From Halarcobacter sp. (GTDB taxonomy: Bacteria > Campylobacterota > Campylobacteria > Campylobacterales > Arcobacteraceae): 64,000 nucleotides of DNA. Under the pieces are notes generated by a model that ran no database searches, was not told the origin of the DNA, and was given only the letters and a program-made list of their open reading frames with translations. Location of the stretch: NCBI GenBank assembly GCA_963676565.1, contig OY781089.1, positions 2,720,001 to 2,784,000 of the forward strand, given 5' to 3'. The translations under genes were made by a program, and so were the position numbers. Shown here in pieces: positions 30,426-47,571 of the stretch; the first letter of the stretch is position 1, and every line of letters starts with the position of its first letter.

Positions 30426-30522
30426 TTTAGAACATTTGTTCTAAAACTATAACTACATAAATTTTAAAGTTCGCTTAACGCACATTAGTTACAAATAAGC
30501 TTAGAATAGCATTAAAATAGCA
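30426..30522 (-). promoter_or_regulatory. Modular promoter copy 1 (HpaB-family operon)
   Basis: Palindrome TTTAGAACATTTGTTCTAAA 30426-30445; -10 TATAGT 30446-30451; box GTTCGCTTAACGCAC 30469-30483; TAGCA-N6-TAGCA 30507-30522. Confidence 0.75.
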
Positions 30523-30631
30523 TTTTTTTAAGAAGTATAGATATCTAGGTAGTTTACTGGTAAGATAAATTTTTAAGTCAAAATTTATGCAAAAAAGAAA
30601 TTTTAAAATTTTTTAAAAATTTATGAAAATA

Positions 30632-31288
30632 TTAGCTATTTGTTAGATTTTTGATTTTTTTTTGAACTAAATCAATAGAACTAATCAATGAAGATTTTTC
30701 CAAACCTTTTTGTGTGTGATAAGGTTTTAGTGTATATAAAAGATTTAATATTCCATGAAGTTTTCTAAGGTTTTCATCCTCAACTTTTGTAAATATCCAG
30801 TAAAGTTCCCATTGTGAACCAATTACCCAAGTATTTGAACAAACAAATTGAAGCTCCTCTTCATTTAAACTTATCATATATCCATATTTTGCTTGATGTA
30901 AAAATAGATCTTTTAACTCTTTGGCTTTTTCTAAAACTCTTTTCTCTATTGTTTCTTTTACTTTTGGATATGTTTTATATAAGTTACTAATCTCTAATCT
31001 TAAAAAGGCACATTTTTTTTCCAATTCCATTTGTGTTGAAAAAAGTGCGTAATAATCAAAGGGTAAATCAATGTCATCTTTAATAGAAGTTAAATGACTA
31101 CTAATAGATTCCATATAATTTTCATAAATGGCAATAATAATCTCTTCTTTATTTTTGAAATAGTAATACAAATTCCCAACACTAATACCTAAATCATCAG
31201 CTATATGTCTAGTTGAACTATTCATACAACCTTTTTCATTAAATAGTTTTGTTGCAGTTTTTAATATATCATCTCTTCTAGTTGACAA
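30632..31288 (-). CDS. TetR/AcrR-family regulator
   Basis: A.KLFNEKG..NSSTRHIADDLGISVGNLYYYFKNKEEI HTH motif. Confidence 0.92.
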   Translation of the reverse strand: MSTRRDDILKTATKLFNEKGCMNSSTRHIADDLGISVGNLYYYFKNKEEIIIAIYENYMESISSHLTSIKDDIDLPFDYYALFSTQMELEKKCAFLRLEISNLYKTYPKVKETIEKRVLEKAKELKDLFLHQAKYGYMISLNEEELQFVCSNTWVIGSQWELYWIFTKVEDENLRKLHGILNLLYTLKPYHTQKGLEKSSLISSIDLVQKKIKNLTNS

Positions 31289-31344
31289 TTTTTACCTTAA
31301 AATGAGAATTATTGGATTTTAGCTAGATGAAGGATAAAAGAAGA

Positions 31345-32370
31345 TTAATCTTCTTCTTTTATCATTTGTTTTAATACTCTTCTTGCAAGTTTTCCACCTG
31401 CATCAATGTCTAAACTTATCAGACTTCTATTTGGGAATTTCTCTAGATTTTTTTGTTGAAATTCTAAAACTTCCAAATCCTCTTCAAAAATACCACCCTG
31501 ACCTTTTAAAATATCTTGAGTTAATTGATCGTCTTCTGGCTTAAAACTTCTAGCCATCCCCCAAAAATACCACATAGAAGTTTCACTTTGTGGAGTCATA
31601 AAATCTACAACTGTACATCTAACTTTATCTTCTTTTGGTGCATCTTTACCACCTTTATCTTTTAAAGCTACTCCCACATCAATTAAAACTGCCCCTGGTG
31701 GTACAAATTTTGATTTTTGCCATCTATCAACTTTTTTTGTAGGGTCAAGTTTATTATGTTTCATACACATTTGCCAAAAAGGAGGTGCTTCAATGTCATT
31801 CATATATCTACTTGTTACCACAAAGCCATCTTCATAATCAGTAGTTACCGGACTTTCATCTATCTCTTCTTGACCGATGCTTGAACCATGAACATATTTT
31901 TCATGGGTTAAATCCATTAGATTATCAATCATAAATCTATAATCACATTTTATATCAAAAACTCCACCTGCATATGCCCACTCAGGATTATCATGCCATT
32001 CTAAATGTGGTATCAAAGATTCATCAGCTTTTTCTTTTTTACCTGGCCAAATCCAAATAAATCCATATTTTTCAACAACTGGAAAATATCCTAAACATGG
32101 TATCTTTTTAGGGTCTTGTCCAGGCATTTCAATAATTTTTCCCTTGCACCCAGCTTTTAAACCATGATATCCACAAACAAGGTCGCCATTTTCTATATAA
32201 CCTAAAGACATTGCCGCACCTCTATGGGTACAAAAATCTTCTAAGGCTACAACTTTACCCTCATTATTTCTATAAAAAACTATGTTGGAAAGACATACCT
32301 CTCTTGCAAAAGGTTTATCTTGAATCTCTTCTGATGTAGCTGCTACATACCATGCATTTTTTGGAAACAT
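31345..32370 (-). CDS. vanA: Rieske O-demethylase oxygenase subunit (vanillate monooxygenase-like)
   Basis: MFPKNAWYVA N-terminus, CTHRG...CGYHG Rieske ligands, DNLMDLTHE.YVH Fe site, WYFWGMAR and IDAGG. Start at ATG 32370. Confidence 0.9.
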   Translation of the reverse strand: MFPKNAWYVAATSEEIQDKPFAREVCLSNIVFYRNNEGKVVALEDFCTHRGAAMSLGYIENGDLVCGYHGLKAGCKGKIIEMPGQDPKKIPCLGYFPVVEKYGFIWIWPGKKEKADESLIPHLEWHDNPEWAYAGGVFDIKCDYRFMIDNLMDLTHEKYVHGSSIGQEEIDESPVTTDYEDGFVVTSRYMNDIEAPPFWQMCMKHNKLDPTKKVDRWQKSKFVPPGAVLIDVGVALKDKGGKDAPKEDKVRCTVVDFMTPQSETSMWYFWGMARSFKPEDDQLTQDILKGQGGIFEEDLEVLEFQQKNLEKFPNRSLISLDIDAGGKLARRVLKQMIKEED

Positions 32371-32372
32371 AT

Positions 32373-33086
32373 TTATCCTTTCAAATTTTTTTGATACCAT
32401 GAACTTATAGCTTTTGCAACAAGTTTAGGTTGTTCACATGGAGCCATATGACTCGCATTTTCAATTACTACTAAATCACTTTCGTTTAGATACTCTTGCA
32501 TCTTTTCATGTTGAGAAATGGGACTCCATTTATCTTCTGTAGCACTTAAAAGTAGAACAGGAACTTCTACATTAGGTAAAACTTCCCTAGCATCAGGTCT
32601 ATTTAGAAGTGCATTTATTTGTTTGCTAAACTCTTCTTTGTTATAAGTTCTAACCATACTTTCAAGTTTAGACATCAATTCTTTATTTGATAATCCTTGA
32701 TTACCCATCATTGGTGGAAGCCATTGTTTTAAAACTGAATCAATCCCTTCTTTATCAGCAAGATCAAGAAGCTTTTGTCTTCCAGGAACTTCTGCATCAC
32801 TTTTTGGATTAACACCTGTATTAAATAGTCCTAAACCTTTTACTCTTTTTGGGTCTTTATTATAAACCTCAAGGGCAACTCTTCCACCCATAGAGTGTCC
32901 TATTAAAATAAAGTTTTCAGGTGATCCAGCTAAAACCTTTTTTGCCATAGATTCAATAGAGTCATACCCTTTAAATGAAATCATAGTAATATCAAAACTA
33001 TCTTCTAACTCTTTTTGGATATCTTCCCAAACTGTTTTATCACATAAAAGTCCTGATAGAAATACAATTGAATCTTTAGATTTCAT
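32373..33086 (-). CDS. Alpha/beta-fold hydrolase
   Basis: GLLCD, nucleophile GHSMGG, ED and HMAPCEQP motifs. ATG 33086 follows an AGGA RBS. Confidence 0.88.
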   Translation of the reverse strand: MKSKDSIVFLSGLLCDKTVWEDIQKELEDSFDITMISFKGYDSIESMAKKVLAGSPENFILIGHSMGGRVALEVYNKDPKRVKGLGLFNTGVNPKSDAEVPGRQKLLDLADKEGIDSVLKQWLPPMMGNQGLSNKELMSKLESMVRTYNKEEFSKQINALLNRPDAREVLPNVEVPVLLLSATEDKWSPISQHEKMQEYLNESDLVVIENASHMAPCEQPKLVAKAISSWYQKNLKG

Positions 33087-33095
33087 AATCAAATC

Positions 33096-34136
33096 CTATT
33101 TTGTATTTGCATTAATAGCTTTTCTTGCTTCTTTTACAAGTTTTTCACCATCAATGCCTTTTTCTTTAACTTCATTAATCCACTTTTGAACAACTCTTTG
33201 ACCAGCTTGGTCAAACTCTTTCATCGATTCTTCACTTAATGCAGTAACATCTGAATCTTTTGAAGATTTTTGTTTTTCAATTCCTGGTTTTTCAAAATCC
33301 ATCCATAATTGACCAGCTTTTTTAACCATTTCCATATCTAAACTTTTTTCAACTATATCTTGTAAGTCTTTTGGCATAGAATTAAATTTATCTTTATTCA
33401 TTAGCATGATAAATACTGATGTTCCAAATCTAGAATCATTTGGTCCAACAATTGAATGTTTAGTTAAGTTATGAATTTTAAATGCAGGGAAAATCTCAAA
33501 AGGAACCAATGCTCCATCAACTGCATTTTTTGATAAAGCTTGAGGTAGTGTTGGTAATGGCATACCAACTGGTTCTGCACCAAACTCTTCAATTAACCAA
33601 CCTCCAGTTCTTGATGGAGTTCTTAGTTTTAATCCTTTTAAATCTTCAAGTGATTTAACCTCTTTTTGTGTTGTATGAATTGCATTACCAGCATGCACAT
33701 AAACTAACAAAGGTTTTACATCTTTATAATCATCTTTGATTAGATCAAACTTCTCTTTTATTGCAATTGATGTAGCTAAAGATGAACCTTGATGAACAGT
33801 TGGAAGTTCAAAAACCTCAGTTCTAGGAAAAACTCCTGGTGTATAACCAGCTAATGTCCAAATTATATCAACTGACCCATCTCTTGCTTGCTTGTAAAGT
33901 TCAGTGGGTTTTCCTCCAAGTGTCATTGAAGGGAATACTTCAACTTTAATTCTTCCATTAGACATCTCTTCAACTTTTTTAGCCCAAGGCATAAGTAACT
34001 TTGTATGAGTTGGAGCTTTTGGACTATGTAAATGATGTAAAATCAACTTAATAGGTTTTTCATTTGCATATAAACTACTTGCAAATACTGCAATCCCCAT
34101 AACCGTTCCTAAAATCTTCATCTTTATATTTGTCAT
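33096..34136 (-). CDS. dctP: TRAP transporter substrate-binding protein (orphan paralog 3)
   Basis: Same conserved DctP motifs; signal peptide. Confidence 0.9.
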   Translation of the reverse strand: MTNIKMKILGTVMGIAVFASSLYANEKPIKLILHHLHSPKAPTHTKLLMPWAKKVEEMSNGRIKVEVFPSMTLGGKPTELYKQARDGSVDIIWTLAGYTPGVFPRTEVFELPTVHQGSSLATSIAIKEKFDLIKDDYKDVKPLLVYVHAGNAIHTTQKEVKSLEDLKGLKLRTPSRTGGWLIEEFGAEPVGMPLPTLPQALSKNAVDGALVPFEIFPAFKIHNLTKHSIVGPNDSRFGTSVFIMLMNKDKFNSMPKDLQDIVEKSLDMEMVKKAGQLWMDFEKPGIEKQKSSKDSDVTALSEESMKEFDQAGQRVVQKWINEVKEKGIDGEKLVKEARKAINANTK

Positions 34137-34151
34137 CTTTTATCCTTTATT

Positions 34152-36020
34152 TTATAAGAATATATTTTTAAAATAATTCTCTAAATCATTAGTTGCATCT
34201 AATGGCAAGATATCTGCTATATGTTGGTCTGGTCTAACTATTAATATGCACCCTTTATCTTTGTCAACACCCCTTAAATCGAAAATATTCTCTCCTTCTT
34301 TATAATTTGGACAATATGCTTTTTCATAATCTTTTAATCCATATACACCAATAGCAGGTCTTAAAAGTGATGGAATCTCTTCAAACTCAATCTCTTGATG
34401 AACTTGTTGGAAGATTCCATATGTATCAATAACTGAATCTAAAGCATCACCTTTTTTAGTATGTTTTAAAATTGGTGAATTCGGATTATTTTCTAGATAA
34501 TCACAAAGTTTATAAACTGCTGAATTTTTATCGTTTGGATTTGATCTATCATTAAAAATATATAATTTAAATCTAGTATCAATTTTAATAGTCTCTAAAA
34601 GTTCTATCTTTTTGGCATCTGCTAATCTTATAACTGGTGCACTATGTAATCTTTCCCCTACTTCAAAACCACTTGCTAATATTTGATGAGTTCCTTTTCC
34701 TGTTAAAATTGATGGCTGATATTTAACTGTTAAACCAGCAGTGAATCTTCCACCTTCAATAAAGTGACTTTTTACATTTACTGCTTTGTTATCAATAGGA
34801 GCACTCATAACTCTTGCCCATTTATGGTCATAATCAATTAAACCTTGTGCAGCTAATTGTCTTTCATCTGAATATGTATGTAATAATGAAGCATCACATT
34901 TACCTAATAAAACAGAAGCTAGTTTCCATCCTAAGTTAAATGTATCACCCATAGAAACATTCATACCTTGACCTGCCTTTGCACTATGAGTGTGGCAAGC
35001 ATCTCCTGCAATAAAAACATGGGGATTAGAATCACCTGTTAAATTTGCTTCAACATCATCAAATCTATCTGTTACACTATGACCAACTTCATATACAGAC
35101 CACCATGCAGTTTCTTGAACATCAAAAGAATAAGGAGCAAAAATTTCACTTGCAGCTTCTTTTAATCTATCTAAAGTGATTTTTTTACTATCTCCTCTAT
35201 TTTCTAATTTATCAAGTTCAACATATATTCTTGTTAGTTGTCCACCTTCTCTTGGAATTAAAAGAATATTTCCTTTCGAAGATTTGATAATATTTTTAAA
35301 TCTTAAATCAGGAAAATTGGTTTTAACTAAAACATCCATAACTCCCCATGCTTGACCTTCTCTATCCCCATGAAGTTCTCCACCAATTGCACTTCTTACT
35401 ATACTTCTTGCACCATCACAACCAGCTAGGTATTTAGTTTTTACAGTTTTTTCTTCCCCCTTACAATCAATAGTAACAACTACTGGATACTCTCTATCGC
35501 TTTTATCAAAATCAACAGAAACTAAAGAATGAGAATAATCTACTTCTAATCTTGTTGGAGAGTTTTTCATAACTTCCATGTATAAATCATGGATTCGACC
35601 TTGGTTAAGTACGGTATGAGGCATGTAAGAGATACCATCTTTTACATCTTGCACCTTAGCATCTCTAATAATTTTATTAGAGTTACTTGAATCAGGTTTC
35701 CAAAAATGAGTCTCATTTACCCAATATGCTTCTTTTAAAACTTTTTCGGCAAATCCAAATGCTTCAAACATCTCCATAGACCTACAAGATACACCATCAG
35801 CTTGACCTAGATACATAGGTTCATCTTTTCGCTCAACTAATCTAGTTTTAATCTCTGGAAACTGAGCTAACTGTGCAGCTAAAGTTAATCCCGCAGGACC
35901 TGAACCAATTATTAAAACATCCAATTTTTCTGGAAGTTCACCTTGCTCTCCTTCAAACCCTTTTGCTACTTTTTGAATCTCTGGATTTCCTCTATGAAAA
36001 CCGTTTACATGAAATTGCAT
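34152..36020 (-). CDS. mobA: 3-Hydroxybenzoate 4-monooxygenase (phenol 2-monooxygenase family)
   Basis: MQFHVNGF..GNP N-terminus as recalled for Comamonas MobA; GQADG, GCDGARS, AGDACHTHS.KAGQGMN and C-terminal VRPDQH. Start 36020. Confidence 0.88.
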   Translation of the reverse strand: MQFHVNGFHRGNPEIQKVAKGFEGEQGELPEKLDVLIIGSGPAGLTLAAQLAQFPEIKTRLVERKDEPMYLGQADGVSCRSMEMFEAFGFAEKVLKEAYWVNETHFWKPDSSNSNKIIRDAKVQDVKDGISYMPHTVLNQGRIHDLYMEVMKNSPTRLEVDYSHSLVSVDFDKSDREYPVVVTIDCKGEEKTVKTKYLAGCDGARSIVRSAIGGELHGDREGQAWGVMDVLVKTNFPDLRFKNIIKSSKGNILLIPREGGQLTRIYVELDKLENRGDSKKITLDRLKEAASEIFAPYSFDVQETAWWSVYEVGHSVTDRFDDVEANLTGDSNPHVFIAGDACHTHSAKAGQGMNVSMGDTFNLGWKLASVLLGKCDASLLHTYSDERQLAAQGLIDYDHKWARVMSAPIDNKAVNVKSHFIEGGRFTAGLTVKYQPSILTGKGTHQILASGFEVGERLHSAPVIRLADAKKIELLETIKIDTRFKLYIFNDRSNPNDKNSAVYKLCDYLENNPNSPILKHTKKGDALDSVIDTYGIFQQVHQEIEFEEIPSLLRPAIGVYGLKDYEKAYCPNYKEGENIFDLRGVDKDKGCILIVRPDQHIADILPLDATNDLENYFKNIFL

Positions 36021-36027
36021 TATCTTC

Positions 36028-36145
36028 TCCCTTTTAAAATGTCCCATGTTAAAAGGGACTCTACTTTTTTAACTACTTTTATCCGATTGAGTAAATCAAT
36101 CGTAAAGTAGCAAACCCTAAAGAAGGCAACGAGTTACCTTTCTTT
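36028..36145 (-). promoter_or_regulatory. Structured 5' leader of mobA, including SD-occluding GGA-loop hairpin (copy 2)
   Basis: Stems at 36119-36145, 36073-36110 (CGATTGA/TCAATCG) and 36028-36058 (TCCCTTTTAA/TTAAAAGGGA). Confidence 0.55.
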
Positions 36146-36147
36146 TT

Positions 36148-36249
36148 TGTTGTATATACAACACGTTATGAAAATACTAACATCTTAAATTTTAAAGTAC
36201 GCTTAACGAACATAAGTTCTTTTTAAGGAAAAATAGCATCAACATAGCA
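36148..36249 (-). promoter_or_regulatory. Modular promoter copy 2 (mobA operon) with MarR-type operator
   Basis: Perfect palindrome TGTTGTATATACAACA 36148-36163; extended -10 TGtTAGTAT 36174-36182; box GTACGCTTAACGAAC 36197-36211; TAGCA-N6-TAGCA 36234-36249. Confidence 0.75.
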
Positions 36250-36325: not shown

Positions 36326-36748
36326 ATGACATCAAAATTAGGCAAATCTGTTGGTATTGTTGTAACAAATACTGCAGTTTTATTAAATAGTTCTATAAAC
36401 AAAAAACTTCAACCATTTGGTATAGCAATAGAACAAAGAGCAATACTAGAGATAATTATGAATAAAGGTAGTTTAAAACAATCAGAATTGACAACTATTT
36501 TATGTAGAGATAGAACGACAATATCTAGGACACTTAAAACTTTAGAAAACAAAGACTATATAAAAAAAGAAAAAATAGATAATAAAGTGTTTATTATTAG
36601 ATTAAGTGAAAAAGGTATTGATGTTATGGAAAAAACTCAAGATATAGTAAATGAATTTAGAAGTAAAATTTTATCAAATTTCACAGAAGAAGAGATTGAG
36701 AATTTATACACATATTTAGAAAAGATTCAAGATATTGTAAAAGAATAA
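36326..36748 (+). CDS. MarR-family regulator divergent from mobA (MobR-like position)
   Basis: LQPFGIAIEQ..IL, QSEL...L.RDRTTISRTLKTLE and LSEKG motifs. Confidence 0.88.
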   Translation: MTSKLGKSVGIVVTNTAVLLNSSINKKLQPFGIAIEQRAILEIIMNKGSLKQSELTTILCRDRTTISRTLKTLENKDYIKKEKIDNKVFIIRLSEKGIDVMEKTQDIVNEFRSKILSNFTEEEIENLYTYLEKIQDIVKE

Positions 36749-36775: not shown

Positions 36776-36783
36776 ATTAGATA

Positions 36784-38091
36784 CTAAAATTTATAAGTTA
36801 AATATAGTTTAGCTATATCCATAGTATCATCATCATTTGCTGGTAAATCTAAATCAACATGAGCTAATTGTAATCTTGCAGATAAACCATCTAATGCACC
36901 TTTAAATTTATATCTTAAATCAGCTTGGATTTCAGATGCTCCATCCATATTAGTCCCAGATACTATTTGTCCCTTTTCACTTTGAGAATATGAAGAGAAT
37001 GCAAATAATGTAAATACATTAGGAATAATTTTTGGAATAACCATTAAAGAAGTTGAAGTCATACCTGCATAAATGTTATCTGTAAACATTTGTCCACCAT
37101 TATATTTAAAGAAATGTGGAACATGTCCTAAGGCACCTAAGAAAGAGTTATCATCAGATACTTTTGTATATGCAATTTTAAATGCTGTATCAAATACTTT
37201 ACCACCTAGTTTTACTCCATACAATGTTGTTTCACCTTTTCCACCATTTGTTGTTTCATTTGTTGCTCCAATTGCTACATCACCATCATAATCTGTTCCT
37301 GCATAATATGCTCCAATTGATAAAGGCATATCTACTGGTAATTTATAATCACCTTGTACAAAATATGTAGAATATGAATCATTAGTTGCTCTTGGTGCAT
37401 CTAAAGGATTTCCAATATCATCATTTACTGCTAAATATTGACCTTCTAAAGTCAAATTTGGAATTGATGTATTTTTTACATATAAAGATAATGTTGGATC
37501 ACTAAAATGTGTTTTTCTTGCATCATTAGTTGTATTATATCTTTCAATCCAATCTTTAATTACATATGCTCTAATCTCTGTATTTCCAATATCTTTAGAA
37601 ACTACAGATAAAGCATGAAATGTATCTTTTAATGGATTTGAGTTTGATACTGCAATTAAAGGAGTAACAATACCTTGTCTACCAACTTTTACTTCAGTTT
37701 GTGCAAAATTATATTGTAAGTTTGCAATATATAACATTGATCCTTCTTGAGTAATTCTTCCTTCACCCTCTTGATTCCATGGAGCACCTGTTCCTTCTGC
37801 ACCTGATTGCTCTATTTCTAAGCTTCTTGCATGTTGAAAACCAACATTTGCTTTAAACCCATAAAAATCACCTGTAGTGTAGTTTAATTGTAAAGCTACT
37901 GCTGAAGAGTTAGCATTTCTGTATGGTCCTACTAAAGTTGAATTAACATCAGAAGCCATAACTGTCATATTTCTAATCTCACCAGAAACTTTTCCCCCTG
38001 ATAATGCTTCTACTAAAGAACCTGCGTTTGCACTTATCCCTAATGCACTAACTGCTGCTAATGCTAAACTTACTTTTTTAACGTTGAACAT
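36784..38091 (-). CDS. Outer membrane porin (OprD/Campylobacterota MOMP-like)
   Basis: Signal peptide; SLVEAL..GKVSGEIR and KVGRQ.I.TP motifs; C-terminal YLTYKF. Start at ATG 38091. Confidence 0.82.
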   Translation of the reverse strand: MFNVKKVSLALAAVSALGISANAGSLVEALSGGKVSGEIRNMTVMASDVNSTLVGPYRNANSSAVALQLNYTTGDFYGFKANVGFQHARSLEIEQSGAEGTGAPWNQEGEGRITQEGSMLYIANLQYNFAQTEVKVGRQGIVTPLIAVSNSNPLKDTFHALSVVSKDIGNTEIRAYVIKDWIERYNTTNDARKTHFSDPTLSLYVKNTSIPNLTLEGQYLAVNDDIGNPLDAPRATNDSYSTYFVQGDYKLPVDMPLSIGAYYAGTDYDGDVAIGATNETTNGGKGETTLYGVKLGGKVFDTAFKIAYTKVSDDNSFLGALGHVPHFFKYNGGQMFTDNIYAGMTSTSLMVIPKIIPNVFTLFAFSSYSQSEKGQIVSGTNMDGASEIQADLRYKFKGALDGLSARLQLAHVDLDLPANDDDTMDIAKLYLTYKF

Positions 38092-38115: not shown

Positions 38116-38208
38116 TGAACACTTGTTCGATAACTTTAACAATAGTTTTTTTAAAGTTCGCTTAACGGACATAAGTTCTTTTTAAGTAAACATAGCATTT
38201 ACGTAGCA
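38116..38208 (-). promoter_or_regulatory. Modular promoter copy 3 (porin)
   Basis: TGAACACTTGTTCG 38116-38129; -10 TAAAGT 38133-38138 with upstream TG; box GTTCGCTTAACGGAC 38156-38170; TAGCA-N6-TAGCA 38193-38208. Confidence 0.75.
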
Positions 38209-38509: not shown

Positions 38510-39907
38510 CTATCCAGCTAAAAAATGTGGCATGAATAATACTATCATAGGTAATAGCAATAAAACTCCAATTCTCACTATTTCTGCTAGTAAAAATGGA
38601 ATAACTCCAATAAATGTCTCATTCATTGGTACATTTTTTGCTACTTTTGAAATAATGAATACATTTAAACCAACAGGAGGTGTAATAAGACCTAATTCAA
38701 CGGATATGAGGGCAAGAATCCCAAACCATATTTTTAAATCTTCATTGTCCATTCCAAAACCAGCAGTTGATGCTGTTACGTACTCCCCACCATTTAGTGT
38801 GATTAATACAGGCCATATAAATGGAATAACGACAAGAATCATTGCCATTGAATCCATGAAAAATCCAAGAATCAAAAATATTAATAAGATCAATATTAAT
38901 ATAAGCCAAACATTCATATCAAGTGTTGATGTCCACTCTGCGATTCCTTGAGGAAGACCAGATCTTGTAAAAAAACCTTTTAAAACTTCTGCTCCAAACA
39001 AAATGAAATAAATCATTGCACTTGTAACACCAGTTTCTAAAATACTCGTTTTTAATCTTGAAATAGTTAAGCCTTCACCTTTACCCTTTTTAATTCTTAA
39101 ATATACTCCATACATTGCAATAATAAAAACACCAGCAGCAGCTGCTGGAGTAGGAGTAAATAATCCTAAGCCAAGACCTAGAATAATTGAACCAAAGGTT
39201 AAAACAACGGGAACTAATCCCCTTAGTGCTTTATTTCTTTCCTCTTTACTTAATGGTTTTGAAAGAGGTGCTAATTCAGGTTTTAATCTAACTTGAATAA
39301 CAATTACCATAATAAAAAACAATACTGCTAATAAACCTGGCAAGATTGCTGCTTGGAACATCTCAATAATTGAAGCCTCAACTACAATTGAATATAAAAT
39401 TAAAGCAATTGATGGTGGAATTAATATTCCAAGTGTTCCACCTGCTGCTAATGTTCCAGTTGCAAGTCTAGGAGAATAATTAAGTTTCTCTAATTCTGGT
39501 AATGCAATTTTTCCCATTGTAGATGCTGTTGCTAATGATGAACCAGAAACTGCTCCAAAACCTGCACAAGCTCCAATTGATGTGATTGCAACTCCACCTT
39601 TAAATCTACCAAGTATTGCGTTCATTCCTGCAAATAAATCTTTTGCAAGCCCAGTATAGTTTGCTAGATATCCCATTAGGATAAATAAAGGGATAACAGA
39701 TAGATTATAATTTGCTAAATTTTCCCATAATAAACTTTTGTATTGCATAATATATGGTTCAAATCTAATATAAGAAATATTTACTGATAATACGTAAGTT
39801 CCTATAATACCAGTAAAAGCCATGGCAAAAGCAACTCTAGCTTTTAATATTAAAAGTAAGAAAAATAAGGCTAAGCCTAATAAACCAATTAATTCTTTCT
39901 CAGCCAT
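38510..39907 (-). CDS. dctM: TRAP transporter large permease
   Basis: IPLFILMG, GAVSGSSLATA, GGTLGILIPPS and GLITPPVGLNVF motifs. Confidence 0.95.
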   Translation of the reverse strand: MAEKELIGLLGLALFFLLLILKARVAFAMAFTGIIGTYVLSVNISYIRFEPYIMQYKSLLWENLANYNLSVIPLFILMGYLANYTGLAKDLFAGMNAILGRFKGGVAITSIGACAGFGAVSGSSLATASTMGKIALPELEKLNYSPRLATGTLAAGGTLGILIPPSIALILYSIVVEASIIEMFQAAILPGLLAVLFFIMVIVIQVRLKPELAPLSKPLSKEERNKALRGLVPVVLTFGSIILGLGLGLFTPTPAAAAGVFIIAMYGVYLRIKKGKGEGLTISRLKTSILETGVTSAMIYFILFGAEVLKGFFTRSGLPQGIAEWTSTLDMNVWLILILILLIFLILGFFMDSMAMILVVIPFIWPVLITLNGGEYVTASTAGFGMDNEDLKIWFGILALISVELGLITPPVGLNVFIISKVAKNVPMNETFIGVIPFLLAEIVRIGVLLLLPMIVLFMPHFLAG

Positions 39908-40430
39908 CTATTTTTCCTCCTTTATGTAAAAATATTTGGAATGCTAAAACAACTGCCCATAAAGCAAGTGAAATAATCCCTGGTGCATAAAATGGCCATT
40001 CTGGCCAACCTAATGTAACTGAAACTGCACCATCATCATATGATTCAATCATTCCCATAAACATTAGAATTGTTAAAAAAATCACAAAAACTAAAGTACA
40101 AGTTAACCACAACATATCAAAATATTGTTGCACTTTTGGTGAGAATTTATTTGCAAAAAAGTCTACAGCTACATGTCCCCTTTGAGCTTGTGCCCAAGGG
40201 AAAAACATTAAAGCAATACAACTTGTCAATAATCTAACCAAATCCTCATAACCAGAAAGTGCTGATACATTAGAATCAAAAATTCTAGCCACTTTATCTA
40301 AACCAAATGCTGCTATATTAACCACTGTAGTTGTTACTACAATAAAAAGTAAAATACCAGCTAAATAAACCCACCAAAGGCATATTCTTTTTAGCTTCCC
40401 CTCAAAATATAATCTTAATCTAGCTTGCAT
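39900..40430 (-). CDS. dctQ: TRAP transporter small permease
   Basis: Four TM segments, RGHVAVD motif; lies between dctP and dctM. Confidence 0.9.
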   Translation of the reverse strand: MQARLRLYFEGKLKRICLWWVYLAGILLFIVVTTTVVNIAAFGLDKVARIFDSNVSALSGYEDLVRLLTSCIALMFFPWAQAQRGHVAVDFFANKFSPKVQQYFDMLWLTCTLVFVIFLTILMFMGMIESYDDGAVSVTLGWPEWPFYAPGIISLALWAVVLAFQIFLHKGGKIDG

Positions 40431-40443
40431 TATAAAACCTTAT

Positions 40444-41472
40444 TTATTTGCTATTTTTAGCAATAGCCTTTCTAGCTTCATCTACTAGTTTTTGTCCATC
40501 AATACCTTTTGAAGTTGCTTCTTCAATCCATTTTTGAACTACTTGCTCACCTATTTTGTTAAATTTAGCCATCTCTTCGTTGCTTAATTTGTGAACTTTT
40601 CCACCTTTTGATTCATTTTGCATCTTCTTCCCTGGTTCTTCAACATCCATCCAAATTTGCCCAACTTTTTTAACCATATCCATATCTACACTATCAATTA
40701 AGATTTTTTGTAAATCTTTATCTAATGATTTAAATCTATCTTCATTCATAAGTAACATAAATACTGAAGTACCAAATCTTTCCCCATTTGGTCCCTCAAC
40801 TGAATGTTTAGTTAAATTATGAAACTTAAGAGGAGGAAACACTTCAAAAGGGATAAACCCTCCATCAACAACACCTTTTGATAAAGCTTGAGGAAGTGCA
40901 GGTAAAGGCATACCTACTGGCTCTGCACCCAATGCAGATATATACCATCCTGCAGTTCTTGATGGAGCTCTAAGTTTTAAACCTTTTAAATCTTCAACAC
41001 TAGTTACCTCTTTTTCAGTTGTATGAATTGCATTACCGGCAGCTGTATAAACCATTAAAGGTTTAATTTTGTCAAAATCATCTTTAATCAAATCCATATT
41101 TTCTTTAATTGCTATTGCAGTAGCAAGTGAATCACCAATATGTACAGTTGGTAACTCAAAAACTTCAGTTCTTGGGAATACACCAGGAGTATATCCAGGA
41201 AGTGTCCAAACGATATCTGCAACACCATCTCTAACTTGTTTATATAACTCAGGTGGTTTCCCTCCCATAGTCATCGATGGGAAAATTTCAATTTTTAATT
41301 TTCCTTTAGATGCTTCTTCTATTTTTTTAGCCCATGGCTCTAAAAATTTAGTTTGAAGAGGAGCTTTTGGACTTAAGAAGTGATGAACTGTCAATGTCTC
41401 CGCTGCATAAGCTGAACCTGCTAATAACAATGTACTAACAAGAATGCTTCCCTTTTTAATTAGATTTTTCAT
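40444..41472 (-). CDS. dctP: TRAP transporter substrate-binding protein (cognate with dctQM)
   Basis: DctP motifs; in operon with dctQM downstream of the lig genes. Confidence 0.92.
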   Translation of the reverse strand: MKNLIKKGSILVSTLLLAGSAYAAETLTVHHFLSPKAPLQTKFLEPWAKKIEEASKGKLKIEIFPSMTMGGKPPELYKQVRDGVADIVWTLPGYTPGVFPRTEVFELPTVHIGDSLATAIAIKENMDLIKDDFDKIKPLMVYTAAGNAIHTTEKEVTSVEDLKGLKLRAPSRTAGWYISALGAEPVGMPLPALPQALSKGVVDGGFIPFEVFPPLKFHNLTKHSVEGPNGERFGTSVFMLLMNEDRFKSLDKDLQKILIDSVDMDMVKKVGQIWMDVEEPGKKMQNESKGGKVHKLSNEEMAKFNKIGEQVVQKWIEEATSKGIDGQKLVDEARKAIAKNSK

Positions 41473-41501
41473 GTCTTTTCCCTTTTTTCACTAATCTTTT
41501 A

Positions 41502-42440
41502 TTATTTCATTGCTTTTTCTAAAGCATCTAGAACTTTCATTGCCGATAATGCTTGTTGTACACTTGCATTTGGTTCACGTCCATCTTTAATTGCTGAGAT
41601 AAACTCTCTATCTTGTAACTCAATTCCATTCATAGAGACTGCAACATTTGAAACATCAATTTGCTCTTCTTTTCCCGTAAATAAATCATCATATCTAGCT
41701 ATATAAGTTCCATTATCACAGATATATCTAAAGAAAGTTCCTAATGGCCCATCATTATTAAAAGATAATGATAATGTACAAATTGCTCCTGAAGCAGTTT
41801 TAAGTCCAATACTCATATCCATTGCAATACCAAGTTCAGGATGAATTGGTCCTTGCATTGCTTGAACATCAACAATCTCCTCACCTGTTTGGTAAGCAAA
41901 TAAATCAACTGTATGACAAGCATGGTGCCATAATAAGTGGTCAACCCATGATCTTGGCTCACCTAAGGCATTTGTATTTGTTCTTCTGAAGAAATAAGTT
42001 TGAACATCCATTTGTTGAATTCTTAACTCACCAGCAGTAATTTTATTGTGAACATATTGATGAGATGGATTAAATCTTCTTGTATGTCCAGCCATAGCAA
42101 TAAGTCCTGTCTCTTTTTGTTTATCAACAATTGCTTGTGCATCTGCTAATGAATCTGCCATTGGAATTTCAATCATTACATGTTTTCCTGCATCCATTAA
42201 AGCGATTGCTTGTTGTGCATGAATTTGAGTTGGACTAGTAATAATTGCTGCATCAAAATCATATTTTAAAGCATCTTCTAAAGTAAGTACATAATTTGGA
42301 ACATTAAACTGTTCAGCTACTTTTTTTGTACCCTCTTCTCTTCTTCCAACTAAGCAAACAACCTCAGCATCCTCAATATTTGATAGAGCATCTAAATGTT
42401 TTTTTCCAAAAGCTCCATTTCCTACAACACAAATTTTCAT
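41502..42440 (-). CDS. ligC: 4-Carboxy-2-hydroxymuconate-6-semialdehyde dehydrogenase
   Basis: GAFGKKHLD, GHTRRFNPSHQ, RSW.DHLLWHHA.HTVDLF and SMNGIELQDREF motifs. Confidence 0.95.
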   Translation of the reverse strand: MKICVVGNGAFGKKHLDALSNIEDAEVVCLVGRREEGTKKVAEQFNVPNYVLTLEDALKYDFDAAIITSPTQIHAQQAIALMDAGKHVMIEIPMADSLADAQAIVDKQKETGLIAMAGHTRRFNPSHQYVHNKITAGELRIQQMDVQTYFFRRTNTNALGEPRSWVDHLLWHHACHTVDLFAYQTGEEIVDVQAMQGPIHPELGIAMDMSIGLKTASGAICTLSLSFNNDGPLGTFFRYICDNGTYIARYDDLFTGKEEQIDVSNVAVSMNGIELQDREFISAIKDGREPNASVQQALSAMKVLDALEKAMK

Positions 42441-43289
42441 TTAGTCCTCCTTATTTTCTAAAATTGTTAATGAATAATTAGTATTTGAAATTGGTACATG
42501 CATAAATCTATAAACTTCATTTACCTCTTTAGTTAATGCACCTCTCATAGTTAACCACATAATTGCTTCTGCACCTTCACTACCTGTTTCTCTAATTAAT
42601 TCAGTTACTGAGATGTCTTTTATTGATTCTGGATCTTTTACCAAATTATCTAACCACCAAGTATCGTATTCGACATTAATTAAACCTGCTCTTGGTCCTT
42701 GTAATTGATGTGATAATCCACCTGTTCCCATAATTGCAACATTGATATCTTCAGGGTAAGACTCAACAGCTTCTCTAATAGCTTTTCCTAAGTTGTAACA
42801 TCTATTTCCCTTTGGTTGAGGATATTGAACAACACCAACATACAATGGAATAAACTTACAAGGCCACTCTTCTAAATCTTCACCAAATGCTAAAGAAGCA
42901 GGAACAGAAAAACCATGGTCTACATCTAATTCAAATGACATCGCAACATCAAACTCTTTTTCATTGAAGTGTTCTGCTATATGACAAGATAAAGCAGAGT
43001 CCCCTTTAAAAGTTGGAACTTTTCTTCTTCCATATCCTTCATCAGCTGGTAAATACTCATCAGCAATACCAAGTCCAAAAGGGATAACATTTTTTAATGA
43101 GAAGTTAGAACCATGGTCATTATAAACAATAATACAAACATCAGGTTTTTTCTCTTTCATCCATGCTCTTAAAGGTTTAATCCCTTCATTAAAAGGTTCC
43201 CAATATGGACCAGTCATCTCTTTATTGTCCATTTTAAGCATGATTGTTGGTATGTGTGAAGTACCTATTCCTCCGATTATCTTAGCCAT
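42441..43289 (-). CDS. ligB: Protocatechuate 4,5-dioxygenase beta subunit
   Basis: TSH.P, VYNDH, PADEGYG, DVDHG, GTGGLSHQLQGPRAGLIN and GSEG.E motifs. Start 43289. Confidence 0.92.
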   Translation of the reverse strand: MAKIIGGIGTSHIPTIMLKMDNKEMTGPYWEPFNEGIKPLRAWMKEKKPDVCIIVYNDHGSNFSLKNVIPFGLGIADEYLPADEGYGRRKVPTFKGDSALSCHIAEHFNEKEFDVAMSFELDVDHGFSVPASLAFGEDLEEWPCKFIPLYVGVVQYPQPKGNRCYNLGKAIREAVESYPEDINVAIMGTGGLSHQLQGPRAGLINVEYDTWWLDNLVKDPESIKDISVTELIRETGSEGAEAIMWLTMRGALTKEVNEVYRFMHVPISNTNYSLTILENKED

Positions 43290-43707
43290 TTTTCTTCTCC
43301 TCATTCTCTTTTATACTTCTATTTCCCTCAATTGGTCTTCCACCATTAATCATCATTTGTTGGAACTCTTCAGTTGTCATTTTATTTGGTTCTTCAGACA
43401 TCATAGCTCCGGCTTGTTGCATATGTAAACCTAGAGTTGCAGCAATCTTCCATAAATAATAGATATTCCCACCTAATTCAAGAAGGTAATTTAAATCTTT
43501 TCTTCTAATACCATCTTTCATCTCTTCTGTTAATTTAGGGAATCTACTCATATATTCTTCTTCATCAGCTAAAAAAGCTTCCCTTGCATCAGGTTTATTT
43601 AAAGTGTCACAAAATTTATTTAATTCATAACCTTTTACACAAGTTTGTAAGTCAAATACAATTGTTCCAGGTATATCTTTATAGTCTCTTTCTTCATAAC
43701 TTCCCAT
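43282..43707 (-). CDS. ligA: Protocatechuate 4,5-dioxygenase alpha subunit
   Basis: DIPGT.VF, KGY.LN.FC, GGNIY and MM..GGR..EGNRS motifs. Confidence 0.92.
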   Translation of the reverse strand: MGSYEERDYKDIPGTIVFDLQTCVKGYELNKFCDTLNKPDAREAFLADEEEYMSRFPKLTEEMKDGIRRKDLNYLLELGGNIYYLWKIAATLGLHMQQAGAMMSEEPNKMTTEEFQQMMINGGRPIEGNRSIKENEEKKNG

Positions 43708-43726
43708 AATTTAATCCCTTTCTTTT

Positions 43727-44761
43727 TTAATTAAAATGTTTTTCAATATGTTGATTAATTCTAGGATAAACATTTCTAATATTATCTTCGAATATCATCT
43801 TTTTCTTTTCATCACTAATCTTAGCAGCATCGATGTATCGTTTTGTATCATCAAAATAATGACCTGTTAATGGGTCAATTCCTCTAACTGCTCCAATCAT
43901 TTCAGACGCAAATAAAATATTTTCTGTAGGAACTAAATCTAATAATAAATCAATACCTTCTTGGTGATATACACAAGTATCAAAATAGATATTATTTTCA
44001 ATAATGTTATTTAAATTATCTAATTCTAACATATCACAAAGACCTCTAAATCTTCCCCAATGATAAGGCACTGCTCCACCACCATGTGGGATAACAAATT
44101 TTAACTCTGGAAAGTCTTTAAATAGTGTTTTACTCATCATAAGTTGAGTAAAAGCAGTTGTATCTGCACCTAAATAGTGTGATGATGTTGCATGAAATAC
44201 TGGGTTACAACACCCACTTACATGAATCATTGCTGGAACACCATATTCAACCATCTTTTCATATAATGGATACCAATATTTATCATCTAGCTTTGGAGCA
44301 TCATTCCAATATCCCCCAGATGGATCTGGATTTAAATTACATCCAATAAATCCATACTCTTTTACAACTCTTTCAAGTTCAGCTGCACTTGCAGTCATAT
44401 CTGAACCTGGAGATTGTGGAAGTTGTGCAACACCCACAAAGTTTTTAGGAAAAATATCAACTATTCTTGCAATAAGTTCATTACAATGTTCAGTCCAATT
44501 TTTACTAGTACTTTGATTTCCTATGTGGTGTCCCATCCAAGATGCTCTTGGAGAGAAAATAGTTAAGTCAGTACCTCTTTCTTGTTGTAATTTCAACTGA
44601 TTTTTTTCAACACTTTCTCGCAAAGCCTCATCAGTAATATTAATAACACCCTTTGCATGTTGTACTAAAGGATCAAAACTTAACTCTTTTTTTTGTTGTT
44701 CTCTATAATCACCTAACTCTTTAGGTCCTGTTGTATAATGTCCATGACAATCAATAATCAT
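43727..44761 (-). CDS. ligJ: 4-Oxalomesaconate hydratase
   Basis: MIIDCHGHYTT, FSPRAS.M.HH, NPDPSGG, PHGGGAVPYHWGRFRG and FASEMIGAVRGIDP motifs. Confidence 0.95.
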   Translation of the reverse strand: MIIDCHGHYTTGPKELGDYREQQKKELSFDPLVQHAKGVINITDEALRESVEKNQLKLQQERGTDLTIFSPRASWMGHHIGNQSTSKNWTEHCNELIARIVDIFPKNFVGVAQLPQSPGSDMTASAAELERVVKEYGFIGCNLNPDPSGGYWNDAPKLDDKYWYPLYEKMVEYGVPAMIHVSGCCNPVFHATSSHYLGADTTAFTQLMMSKTLFKDFPELKFVIPHGGGAVPYHWGRFRGLCDMLELDNLNNIIENNIYFDTCVYHQEGIDLLLDLVPTENILFASEMIGAVRGIDPLTGHYFDDTKRYIDAAKISDEKKKMIFEDNIRNVYPRINQHIEKHFN

Positions 44762-44762
44762 A

Positions 44763-45482
44763 TTAAGATTCTCCTTTCAATTGAGCTTCATCATCATAAT
44801 ATTTAAATCCTGCTGCTTCTAAACCTGGTCTCATTTTGTATAAATCAAGTCCTAAAACACCAGCTTCAAACTTCTCTCTTTTTTCACCTTCAAAATCTTC
44901 TCTTTTTTGAGCTGCATCTGCAACTATTTTTGCATCTTCTTGTGCAACAATACAAATCCCATCATCATCAGCAACTACAACATCACCAGGATTTACAATT
45001 TGTCCTGCACAAACAATAGGAATATTCACTGAACCTAATGTATTTTTTACTGTACCTCTAATACTAACTGCTTTTGACCATACTGGAAAATCCATTTCTT
45101 CTAAATCTTTAGTATCTCTAACTCCACCATCAATCACAAGTCCTTTAACACCTTGTGCAATAGCAGAAGTTGCTAATAAATCTCCAAAGAAACCATCAGT
45201 ATTTGGTGTTGTACAAGCAGCAATTATAATATCACCTGGTTGTGCTAACTCCATAGCTACATGAAGCATCCAGTTGTCACCTGGCTGAAGTAATACTGTA
45301 ATTGCACTTCCAGCTATTCTTTTCCCTTTAAGTACAGGTCTAAGTTCAGGATGTAATTCCCCTACTCTTTTTTGTGCTTCATGAACTGTTGCACTTCCAA
45401 ACTTTTCTAATCTTTCAATCTCTTCTTTTGGCGCTCTATTTATATTTTTTACAGCTACACCTAAATGTGGTTTTCTAATCAT
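44763..45482 (-). CDS. ligK: 4-Carboxy-4-hydroxy-2-oxoadipate aldolase
   Basis: [35 protein letters not shown] and LGLD.Y.MR motifs. Start 45482. Confidence 0.95.
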
Positions 45483-45483
45483 C

Positions 45484-46356
45484 TTAATCCTCCCATCCAT
45501 ATAATCTAGCTGGATTATCAACTAAAATTTTCTTTTGTAAAGCCGGGTCTGGAACCATTAATGGAAATAAATCCATTAAGTCTCCATCATTTGGCATATA
45601 TTTTTTAATATTTGGGTGAGGACAATCTGTTCCCCAAAGGATTCTATCTGGTGCAATTGCCACTAACTTTTGCGCATATGGAATCGCATCATAAAATGGT
45701 GGCTCTGGTGAAATTCTTTCAGCACAAGAGATTTTAACCCACCAATTTTCCCTTTCCATAAATTTACATAAAATTTTAAATGCTTCTTGCTCAACACCCT
45801 CTTTTGTTGGGACTCTACCCATATGGTCAACTACAATTGTAATGTCAAATTTTGCAAAGAAATCTTCATATTTAATTATATCTTCTGCATTTACATGAAT
45901 AACTAAATGCCAACCCAATGGAATTACTTTATTTATAACTCTTTCCATCATCTCTAAATCTGGCGCTCCACCTAAATGTGTAACAAAATTAAACCTAACA
46001 CCTTTAACACCATTTTCATCTAAATATTTAAAATCTTCATCTGTAAAAGTGTCATCTGCCATACAAACACCTTTATATCTTTTAGGATCATTTTTTATAG
46101 CATCTAACATTGCTGTATTATCTTTACCATGGCAAGAAGCTTGAACTAAAACAGCTCTAGAGATTCCAATAGTATCATGCATCTTTCTTAAAAGTGCCTC
46201 TGGTGTATCAGGTGGCCAGTATGTTGCCTTTTGTGAATAAGGAAACACTTCATGTGGTCCAAATACATGACAATGGGCATCACAAGCATTTTCCATAGCT
46301 TTAAATACTGGCGTCTTAGTATTTCTATCTGGCGCCATACAAGTTTTCTTTTCCAA
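45484..46356 (-). CDS. ligI: 2-Pyrone-4,6-dicarboxylate lactonase
   Basis: [37 protein letters not shown] and LVDNP.RLY motifs. Confidence 0.92.
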
Positions 46357-46373
46357 ATTAAACTCCTTCTTTT

Positions 46374-47456
46374 TTAATTTAAATCATCTGGATGTGGATA
46401 AGCCACACCTTTACTTAATAATCTTGCTGTTCTTAATAAGCCAGCTTTTTTAATACTTAATTCGTCATTTATTTTTTCACTTGTTAATTCGACTGTAAAC
46501 TCACCACTTGGATGTTCAATAGTTAAATTAGCAATTGGCATATTTTTTACTTTTATAATATCACTAGTAACACACTCATCATATAAACAAGCACTTGCAA
46601 CAGAAACTGCTCCAAGTACTCCAATTGCTGCATGACAATTGTGAGGTATAAATGTTCGTGTGTTTATGCTTCCACCATTTTTAGGAGCTGAAACAATTGT
46701 CATTTTTGGTACAACTTTTTTTGATACTTCCCCAAGATTCATCATTGGACCAACTTCTAATCTTAATTCTTCTAATGTTTTTCTTAATTCAGAATTTTTG
46801 CTTAACTCTTCACAACTTTCATATCCTGTAATTCCTAATTGATTTGCATTAATCAAAACTACAGGCATACCATTATCAATACATGTAATATCAATATCAT
46901 TTACAATATCTTTTTTATTGCCCGTTGGAAAAAGTGAACCACAAACAGATCCTGCAACATCAAGATAATTACAAATAATTGGTGCTGATGTTCCAGGAAC
47001 TCCATCAATTCTTGCATCACCATCAAATTTTAATTTTTTGTTTGGTGTTTGCATTACAAGTTCACAAATATTGTTACTATTAATCATATTGACTTTTATC
47101 GTTGTCATATCTTCTGTTGGTAATACCATCTTATTTTCAATAGCAAAAACACCAACACCTGATAATATATTTCCACAATTAGGAGAACTGTCAACTCTAT
47201 TTTCACCAACAACTACTTGTACAAAAAGAAAATCTATATCACAATTTTCTTTTTCTGATTTACTTACAATAGCAACCTTACTAGTAAGGGGATTCGCGCC
47301 TCCCAAACCATCAATTTGTCTAGAGTCACGACCAACAATACTTAATATGATTTCATCTCTAAGGTTTTCATCCTGAGGTAAATCATTTTTATCAAAATAA
47401 ATACCCTTTGAACTACCACCTCTTATTTGCATATATGGTATTGATTCATAACTCAT
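46374..47456 (-). CDS. ligU: 4-Oxalomesaconate tautomerase/isomerase (PrpF family)
   Basis: RGGSSKG, RQIDGLGGA..LTSKVA, NCGNIL, DNGMP, FIPH.CH.AIG, EHPSG and RTAR motifs. Confidence 0.93.
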   Translation of the reverse strand: MSYESIPYMQIRGGSSKGIYFDKNDLPQDENLRDEIILSIVGRDSRQIDGLGGANPLTSKVAIVSKSEKENCDIDFLFVQVVVGENRVDSSPNCGNILSGVGVFAIENKMVLPTEDMTTIKVNMINSNNICELVMQTPNKKLKFDGDARIDGVPGTSAPIICNYLDVAGSVCGSLFPTGNKKDIVNDIDITCIDNGMPVVLINANQLGITGYESCEELSKNSELRKTLEELRLEVGPMMNLGEVSKKVVPKMTIVSAPKNGGSINTRTFIPHNCHAAIGVLGAVSVASACLYDECVTSDIIKVKNMPIANLTIEHPSGEFTVELTSEKINDELSIKKAGLLRTARLLSKGVAYPHPDDLN

Positions 47457-47478
47457 TTTTAACCTTTAATTTAATTTT

Positions 47479-47571
47479 CGAACATTTGTACAGAAACTAT
47501 AGCATTGGAAAATTTAAAGTACGCTTAACGGACATAAGTTCATTTTAAGTTAAGATAGCAATAGCATAGCA
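47479..47571 (-). promoter_or_regulatory. Modular promoter copy 4 (lig operon)
   Basis: CGAACATTTGTACA 47479-47492; extended -10 TGcTATAGT 47496-47504; box GTACGCTTAACGGAC 47519-47533; TAGCA-N6-TAGCA 47556-47571. Confidence 0.75.

Follow-up and report, generated by a model that had tools for sequence, protein, structure and literature searches.

In Pseudomonas putida and Acinetobacter baylyi, genes of the protocatechuate funnel are controlled by the IclR proteins PcaR and PcaU/PobR, respectively, which, according to passages of Suvorova and Gelfand (PMC8222616), recognize a GTNCG-N5-CGNAC palindrome overlapping the −35 region. Parts of a preprint on PcaR (10.1101/2023.07.27.550818) further describe a second site near the start and negative autoregulation, PcaR repressing its own promoter from −20 to +4. 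We found the same features in a 64,000-nucleotide stretch of Halarcobacter sp. DNA (assembly GCA_963676565.1, contig OY781089.1, positions 2,720,001 to 2,784,000), here called the window, in which four transcription units of an aromatic-acid island are headed by one promoter module consisting of a PcaR-type box, a −10-like hexamer and, farther upstream, the direct repeat TGCTA-N6-TGCTA. The locus differs from the PcaR, PcaU and PobR systems in serving the 4,5-(meta) cleavage route and not the β-ketoadipate (ortho) pathway, in having as its second site an everted pair of half-sites ~40 bp away instead of a second palindrome over the −10 region, in its ligand pocket, and in belonging to a host without a −35 consensus.

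From the motifs, their spacing, their conservation and their co-occurrence with regulator genes we infer where proteins would bind, where transcription would start, the sign of control and the kind of ligand, and we consider it likely that each promoter is a sigma70 module read by two regulators, a PcaR-like IclR protein and an OmpR-type response regulator. The host genome is complete (3.34 Mb, 28% GC, 99.97% completeness). The island spans ~7 to 47.5 kb of the window and carries ferulate-type genes, pobA, genes for an HpaB-like oxygenase, a VanA-like oxygenase, a MobA-like hydroxylase, an OprD porin and TRAP transporters, and a protocatechuate 4,5-cleavage operon, together with regulator genes (two IclR, two MarR, one AraC and one TetR); mobA, vanA, ligU and similar names are labels assigned from family matches. 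The four units and the predicted regulator of their boxes are as follows.

28400..30372, minus strand: target unit 1, HpaB-like monooxygenase (28912-30372) and FMN reductase (28400-28909).
30632..36020, minus strand: target unit 2, MobA-like 3-hydroxybenzoate hydroxylase (probable start 36020), DctP, alpha/beta hydrolase, VanA-like Rieske oxygenase and TetR.
36784..38091, minus strand: target unit 3, OprD-family porin, probable start 38091, with a signal-peptide-like N terminus.
38510..47456, minus strand: target unit 4, protocatechuate 4,5-cleavage operon ligU-I-K-J-A-B-C with dctPQM.
7383..8201, minus strand: PcaR-like IclR protein, inferred regulator of the boxes, downstream of eamA (8182-9066).

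The first-pass annotation of this DNA had reported boxes beginning at 30469, 36197, 38156 and 47519, each followed 37 to 38 nt later by the repeat (TAGCA-N6-TAGCA on the plus strand) and each lying 17 nt from a minus-strand −10 hexamer. Rechecking the sequence and coordinates gave the same picture: the repeats start 38, 37, 37 and 37 nt past the box start, and the hexamers TATAGT, TAGTAT, TAAAGT and TATAGT stand at exactly 17 nt, three of them with an extended TG.

30446..30451, minus strand: −10-like hexamer TATAGT, hpaB-like promoter.
36174..36179, minus strand: extended −10-like hexamer TAGTAT, mobA promoter.
38133..38138, minus strand: extended −10-like hexamer TAAAGT, porin promoter.
47496..47501, minus strand: extended −10-like hexamer TATAGT, ligU promoter.
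30468..30492, minus strand: three-box IclR site, hpaB-like promoter, core palindrome 30469-30483 (~−44 to −30), third half-site weak (8/12).
36196..36220, minus strand: three-box IclR site, mobA promoter, core 36197-36211.
38155..38179, minus strand: three-box IclR site, porin promoter, core 38156-38170.
47518..47542, minus strand: three-box IclR site, ligU promoter, core 47519-47533.
30507..30522, minus strand: TGCTA-N6-TGCTA repeat, hpaB-like promoter (~−83 to −68), candidate site of a global response regulator.
36234..36249, minus strand: TGCTA-N6-TGCTA repeat, mobA promoter.
38193..38208, minus strand: TGCTA-N6-TGCTA repeat, porin promoter.
47556..47571, minus strand: TGCTA-N6-TGCTA repeat, ligU promoter.

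With the hexamer set at −12 to −7, the palindrome falls at −44 to −30 and the repeat at −82/−83 to −67/−68. The box had been said to occupy the −35 position, and its geometry is right, but the host has no TTGACA-like consensus there: 230 crude promoter candidates of the genome gave no TTGACA signal at −35 and only T-rich peaks near −17, −27 and −38, one of which coincides with the module's TTTAAA at −29 to −24. This pattern is in keeping with the title of Petersen et al. 2003. The genome has exactly four copies of the 15-nt box. These sites score 25.5 to 27.5 against the box matrix, the next best genome site scoring 15.8, and with leave-one-out matrices only two to four genome sites reach the score of the omitted box. 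The box is unique to the four island promoters, but the repeat also stands alone outside the island. A sigma54 reading of the repeat was discarded, since it has GC-N9-GC instead of GG-N10-GC and a sigma70-type −10 element downstream.

Our comparison set comprised 151 genomes (relatives' genomes and loci carry G and L numbers, and the source genome is G000), of which 10 have a LigU orthologue of at least 65% identity. These 10 genomes provided 23 box sites; box-like matches in G144 and a third match in G002 sit within open reading frames (ORFs) and were excluded, and one G093 match stood outside the analysis. A TAnnnT hexamer lies 17 nt from the box in 20 of the 23 sites, with an extended TG in 17, and the exact repeat is found 22 to 23 nt upstream of the box in 16. 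The 17-nt spacer is free of indels in 20 sites, whereas the flanking distances vary, and the elements of the module are kept at 65 to 78% LigU identity while the flanks diverge.

The boxes had been attributed to PcaR/PcaU/PobR-type proteins and specifically to the IclR protein encoded at 7383, and both attributions gained support. The four window boxes match the consensus TGTYCRYW3RYGRACA at 15 to 16 of 17 positions, and the cores of all 23 sites do so at 13 to 16. The ATWAGTT tail of the box is a third IclR half-site, and the upstream everted pair that it forms with the palindrome matches at least 10 of 12 positions in 20 of the 23 sites and at least 8 of 12 in all of them. Judged by its half-sites, the box is part of a larger three-box IclR site. 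Passages of PMC8222616 describe such sites, and as there, group 1 (TGT-11-ACA) accommodates one pair and group 2 the everted pair that overlaps it; unlike the sites in those passages, the everted pair here is also found by itself, at +1 and ahead of the regulator's own operon. A table in that study lists 0% in the TGT-11-ACA subgroup for Delta-Epsilonproteobacteria, and the word Arcobacter is absent from its five supplementary files.

An orthologue of the 7383 IclR protein (58 to 100% identity) is present in all 10 LigU genomes. The box precedes ligU in each of them, in nine at 0 to 1 mismatch and in G128 by a relaxed pattern. One genome outside the 10 has only a 64% IclR homologue, in another cluster. 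In G020, G028, G039 and G128, the IclR gene is the last of the lig operon, and no other island regulator was seen within the 20 kb fetched. The protein carries HTH_IclR and IclR_C domains, its best solved relatives are 2IA2 and PcaR (8EJU), and recognition-helix residues R56, R60 and R61 do not vary in any of the 10 aligned proteins and line up with those of PcaR 8EJU (PobR numbering from PMC8222616, matched by pattern rather than by direct alignment).

Around the predicted start sites and in related positions, we found the following features.

30429..30442, minus strand: everted IclR half-site pair over the predicted start, hpaB-like promoter (~−3 to +11).
38116..38129, minus strand: everted IclR half-site pair over the predicted start, porin promoter, 12/12.
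47479..47492, minus strand: everted IclR half-site pair over the predicted start, ligU promoter, 11/12.
9127..9140, unstranded: everted IclR pair before eamA-iclR, probable autoregulatory site.
5004..5017, unstranded: everted IclR pair between nadE and an MFS (Bcr/CflA-type) exporter operon, possible further target.
36148..36163, unstranded: perfect 16-bp palindrome just past the predicted mobA start, in place of the IclR +1 pair.
36326..36748, plus strand: MarR-family regulator divergent from mobA.

In the first-pass annotation, the element at +1 was a local operator providing a third input. That view did not survive for hpaB, porin and ligU, where the element consists of half-sites of the same IclR protein in everted order. 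An input specific to each promoter is also contradicted by the persistence of the element in three genomes whose fetched lig cluster has the IclR gene as its sole regulator gene (the pair is retained in G020, G028 and G039) and by its recurrence before the IclR protein's own operon. Across the 23 sites, the +1 pair matches at least 9 of 12 positions in 17, ~40 bp from the palindrome centre. Alone, it precedes eamA-iclR in the window, in L039 and in five of nine relatives, which are exactly those with eamA outside the lig operon. GAAC-N4-GTTC is also the LexA (Cheo-box) motif, a reading that we rejected on the grounds that the 12 intergenic matches, and likewise those that are conserved, are concentrated at the island and at the operon of the IclR gene; lexA itself was not searched for. 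In L039, two everted pairs lie at the place equivalent to 5004-5017.

The pair is absent from the four mobA promoters. Of the four window promoters, mobA is the only one with a distinct +1 palindrome, and a 16-bp palindrome replaces the pair at mobA in the four genomes with the adjacent MarR gene. The palindrome at 36148-36163 is probably the operator of the divergent MarR protein, although G002 has a one-mismatch copy before mobA yet no close MarR homologue (best 40%), which slightly weakens the link. A MarR gene divergent from the gene for 3-hydroxybenzoate hydroxylase, with a palindrome at the promoter, is also the arrangement of MobR-mobA in Comamonas testosteroni. The resemblance is one of layout, and the island mobA gene, unlike its counterpart, is embedded in the module of IclR and response regulator sites.

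The repeat has 19 exact copies in the genome, 16 of them outside crude ORF calls, compared with 2 to 20 copies and 0 to 1 intergenic for control spacers of 4, 5, 7 and 8. Beside it lie two DUF485-actP units, pta-ackA, TRAP and Tct genes, genes for amino-acid ABC binding proteins and an OprD porin, an aldehyde dehydrogenase gene and acnB; one-mismatch sites accompany a DUF4212-SSF gene. In two other genera, the repeat is again found upstream of actP (both copies), pta, DUF4212-SSF and other orthologues, as well as of lactate permease; there it also precedes unrelated genes, e.g., hydrogenase, nosZ and moeA. By its gene neighbours, the repeat marks a regulon of uptake genes for organic acids and amino acids that extends across the family. 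We found no description of this regulon, or of the island's control, in searches confined to an open-access library.

GCTA-N7-GCTA occurs 11 nt before TAnnnT 11 times, against 0 to 7 times at other spacings. By analogy with PhoB, this would be an activator-like position, and sites ~11 nt before the −10 element resemble pho boxes. The island repeats are oriented as at these simple promoters and lie 54 to 55 nt from the −10 element, that is, 43 to 44 nt (about four turns) farther out. Pentamer direct repeats are described in passages of PMC12936845 for SulR of Campylobacterota, where an OmpR-family (OmpR/PhoB-type) regulator of the SulR type binds them; the system here differs from SulR in its pentamer (TGCTA versus TTACA), in its targets, and in placing the repeat also four turns farther upstream, beside a second regulator.

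The suggestion that the 11-bp-period repeat is read by an OmpR-type global factor gained support, and a candidate can now be named, since the excess of repeats tracks one OmpR-type regulator. It and a paralogue in the same genome are located as follows.

G000:C1:1348492-1349154: OmpR-type response regulator (receiver and Trans_reg_C domains), beside an sCache_2 kinase and actP clusters.
G000:C1:100921-101583: paralogous OmpR-type regulator, in an alcohol/aldehyde cluster with a FIST-domain kinase.

Orthologues of the actP-linked regulator, 66 to 100% identical, are present in 67 of the 91 family genomes. The pattern with a spacer of 6 has 892 matches in these 67 genomes and the control pattern with a spacer of 5 has 171, compared with 170 and 156, respectively, in the 24 genomes without the regulator, related genomes in this comparison not being independent (a reversed-pattern control was composition-biased and was not used). 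In all 12 genomes for which sites were listed, an exact repeat lies 14 to 92 nt past the regulator gene. When the sCache_2 sensor of the adjacent kinase was aligned to 4K08, Tyr90, His103, Tyr143 and Lys156 of PscD, which like Adeh_3718 is an sCache_2 carboxylate sensor, corresponded to Y103, Y116, Y156 and K169, so that three of the four carboxylate contacts given for the PscD sensor in passages of PMC5062169 are kept and His gives way to Tyr. As described in parts of PMC5715377, the CrbS/R (MxtR/ErdR) acetate regulon of Gammaproteobacteria likewise rests on a two-component system with targets that include actP and acetate activation. However, that system pairs an SLC5-STAC hybrid kinase, CrbS, with a LuxR-type protein, CrbR, that binds an inverted repeat, as opposed to the sCache_2 kinase, OmpR-type regulator, direct repeat and broader regulon found here; the host system is analogous, not homologous, to CrbS/R. 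BumR was also considered as a binder of the repeat, and the passages of the literature on it do not give a binding site; passages of PMC6449761 and PMC9927503 name no regulator for these elements.

Six Lig proteins of the 10 genomes were concatenated for a tree, the root of which was assumed to lie at G128; all six genomes that carry the repeat at ligU group together in it as a single clade (bootstrap 100). G020, G028 and G039 have the actP-linked regulator (83 to 91%) but no repeat at ligU. The six clade genomes carry 4, 4, 2, 2, 2 and 2 full modules, which precede ligU, hpaB, mobA, porin or dctP in combinations that differ by genome. The distribution suggests that the repeat was gained once and that the module then spread to different promoters. 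Because the clade contains one genome of another genus and one genome of the source genus falls outside it, transfer within the family is suggested.

We picture the module as follows. As the pathway input, the 7383 IclR protein would bind both the three-box site (~−53 to −30) and the everted pair over the start site. Without inducer, it would occupy the two sites, about four helical turns apart, and block initiation; with an aromatic compound, for which protocatechuate and 4-HB are putative candidates, or a ring-cleavage intermediate bound, it would vacate the +1 pair, and its dimer at −44 to −30 would aid polymerase at a promoter without a −35 consensus. By itself, the everted pair would repress the IclR protein's own operon, and the exporter near 5004-5017 may be a further target. 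At mobA, the MarR operator in place of the +1 pair would add a 3-hydroxybenzoate-type check. As the host input, the actP-linked OmpR-type regulator would bind the repeat at ~−82 to −67, most likely as a coactivator, a sign of control toward which we lean by a modest degree. An IclR-only promoter would be ancestral, the host site having been added once and the module then having come to head different units as the island grew.

Several observations weigh against this reading. The +1 pair is absent at the vdh gene of G010 and in G128. The spacing of 54 to 55 nt between repeat and −10 element is not enriched genome-wide beyond the island promoters (4 and 3 cases versus 0 to 5 at other spacings). 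Spacer identity between copies of the module is 0.63 to 0.72, against 0.41 in the upstream flank; spacers being more alike than the flank, copying contributed, and the fixed spacing could partly reflect the copying of one block. Among the 67 genomes with the regulator, 9 lack a clear excess of repeats, while 3 of the 24 without it show one. The sensor has Tyr where PscD has a His that passages of PMC5062169 call critical. As for the IclR protein, TIGR02431 is its best family match, but its 261.5 bits fall under the cutoff of 284.75, and the PcaR ligand residues Y151, S178, S240, N257 and S259 are C129, A155, S217, N234 and G236 here, only two of the five being kept. The genome gave no match to the intradiol dioxygenase domain PF00775, and the targets are 4,5-cleavage genes. 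The family shortfall, the ligand contacts and the missing intradiol domain together mean that β-ketoadipate is probably not the inducer. The protein would thus work like PcaR without being classed as one.

The same two proteins could instead be combined with a negative host input: the response regulator, once activated by acetate or another preferred acid, would bind −82 to −67 and hinder the adjoining IclR protein, making the repeat a catabolite-repression site. Acetate or succinate does repress aromatic catabolism in Acinetobacter. The repeat ends just 13 to 14 nt from the third IclR half-site, the core of the regulon is acetate uptake together with pta-ackA, and several regulon sites are reversed or near start codons, so that the regulator may act both ways. 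We nevertheless regard this as unlikely, because the orientation and helical phase of the repeat match those of the activator-like sites 11 nt before −10, the 55-nt distance is kept in L039 although the box there has decayed (one case), and the regulon includes many uptake systems for alternative substrates.

The repeat could also be read, alone or alongside the actP-linked regulator, by the paralogue from the alcohol/aldehyde cluster. That paralogue, which also counts against our reading, is 52% identical, has a near-identical recognition helix, and may cross-bind the repeat; GCTA repeats cluster around its gene, and in G039 the paralogous regulator-kinase pair lies directly upstream of ligU. 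But the ligU promoter of G039 has no repeat, and in the 12 genomes of the family that have the actP-linked regulator but gave no second match, spacers of 6 still exceed spacers of 5 (102 versus 45, summed by hand), four of these genomes having an exact repeat beside the actP-linked regulator gene. A role for the paralogue as reader is therefore distinctly improbable.

Quite as improbable, in our judgement, is an IclR protein that only represses, over the −35 region and the start site, with all activation coming from the response regulator. Both sites do overlap the space of polymerase, and a promoter in L039 no longer has the upstream box yet retains the repeat, the −10 element and the +1 pair. 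However, four ligU promoters have the box and the −10 element with no repeat, and the 17-nt spacer is intact in three of these, just as it is indel-free in 20 of the 23 sites amid varying flanking distances. PcaR and PcaU are, moreover, dual regulators, as stated in parts of 10.1101/2023.07.27.550818. Finally, that the boxes belong to another island regulator (the IclR protein at 24859-25623, TetR, AraC or MarR), several of which are nearer than the 7383 gene, or that the shared text is mere recent duplication, as the similar spacers might imply, is scarcely credible and largely refuted by co-occurrence, the second IclR gene being present in only 6 of 10 box-bearing genomes and being accompanied by separate sites upstream of pobA, the compact clusters of G020, G028, G039 and G128 showing only the 7383 orthologue within the 20 kb fetched, and the elements having been kept while their flanks diverged. 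The second IclR, TetR and AraC proteins were ruled out as box regulators by the same comparison across genomes.

The second IclR gene has the following features.

24755..25623, plus strand: second IclR (24859-25623) and its own tandem GTTCC-N7-GGRAC-type sites (24755-24793), which lie between pobA and it; not the box regulator.

The sites at 24755-24793 are probably the operator of the second IclR protein, and similar GTTCC-N7-GGRAC-like sites occur in four relatives with a divergent pobA-iclR pair. Elsewhere, a 64%-identical paralogue of the 7383 IclR protein precedes another operon with a LigK-like aldolase, with its own related palindrome upstream (L044:10936, L045:10936, L018:10696 and L019:10578). 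G010 lacks the porin gene after dctM but retains a decayed box and +1 pair (L003:12074-12088), like a relic of the porin promoter. Between the second IclR gene and the FMN reductase gene lie a TPR-repeat gene and two small ORFs (25667-28311), a stretch that is probably a recent insertion; its equivalent in G014 has one different ORF. The repeat at G000:C1:141286-141301 has TATAAT 11 nt downstream and points into the 3′ end of an opposite-strand Na/H exchanger gene; it may serve as an orphan promoter or give rise to an antisense RNA, and the equivalent site in G047 heads an AraC gene.

The hpaB (30390-30408) and mobA (36041-36059) leaders contain a GTCCC-N7..10-GGGAC hairpin that lies 17 to 20 nt upstream of the start codon and immediately 5′ to the ribosome-binding site. 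The same hairpin is found at 14 more places in the source genome (e.g., C1:169143, 283923, 723153, 841606 and 1290573), making 16 copies versus 1 to 6 for control patterns, often with AAAAG(T/A)AG further upstream. It also precedes unrelated genes (FBPase, ferredoxin, cyanase, accD, argJ and RNase HII), and among the relatives' island loci it occurs in the hpaB and mobA leaders only in G014. It is possibly a small mobile or translational element. An Rfam search across the island gave no matches to known RNA, and RNA runs containing the stretch had only small shares and gave no evidence of start sites. An A/T-rich element with the core TACT(A/G)GTAAGATA lies at 18560-18660 and precedes the MarR gene at 18703 and the acyl-CoA dehydrogenase operon in several relatives. 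A similar stretch occurs just upstream of the hpaB module (30534-30565) and may be a fourth input, from the MarR protein at 18703. A scan of the genome collection gave 13 loci, all Campylobacterota by title or unassigned, and no donor was identified among them, 6 of the 13 having been analysed.

Returning to the two-regulator module, its parts are of known kinds and the combination is new; a borrowed pathway appears to have been wired into host carbon control. A bolder extension, which we offer only tentatively and would not expect to hold in full, is that the actP-linked system is an undescribed global carbon regulator of the Arcobacteraceae, in the role of CRP or Crc elsewhere, that the island was put under it by a single gain of a site four helical turns upstream of the usual position followed by spread of the whole module, and that one IclR protein uses two dimer geometries, the palindrome at −35 activating and the everted pair at +1 repressing. 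Passages of Suvorova and Gelfand (PMC8222616) propose that some IclR proteins dimerize in two modes, and parts of the PcaR preprint (10.1101/2023.07.27.550818) call the positions required for IclR activation unknown. Since both arrangements stand at fixed places in these promoters, both questions could be addressed with a few point mutants. The relatives, for their part, preserve the steps by which a transferred pathway would have been wired in, from IclR-only promoters through the gained host site to two to four copies before different genes, and the repeat exposes in the Arcobacteraceae a family-wide regulon for organic-acid and amino-acid uptake, together with a candidate for its regulator.

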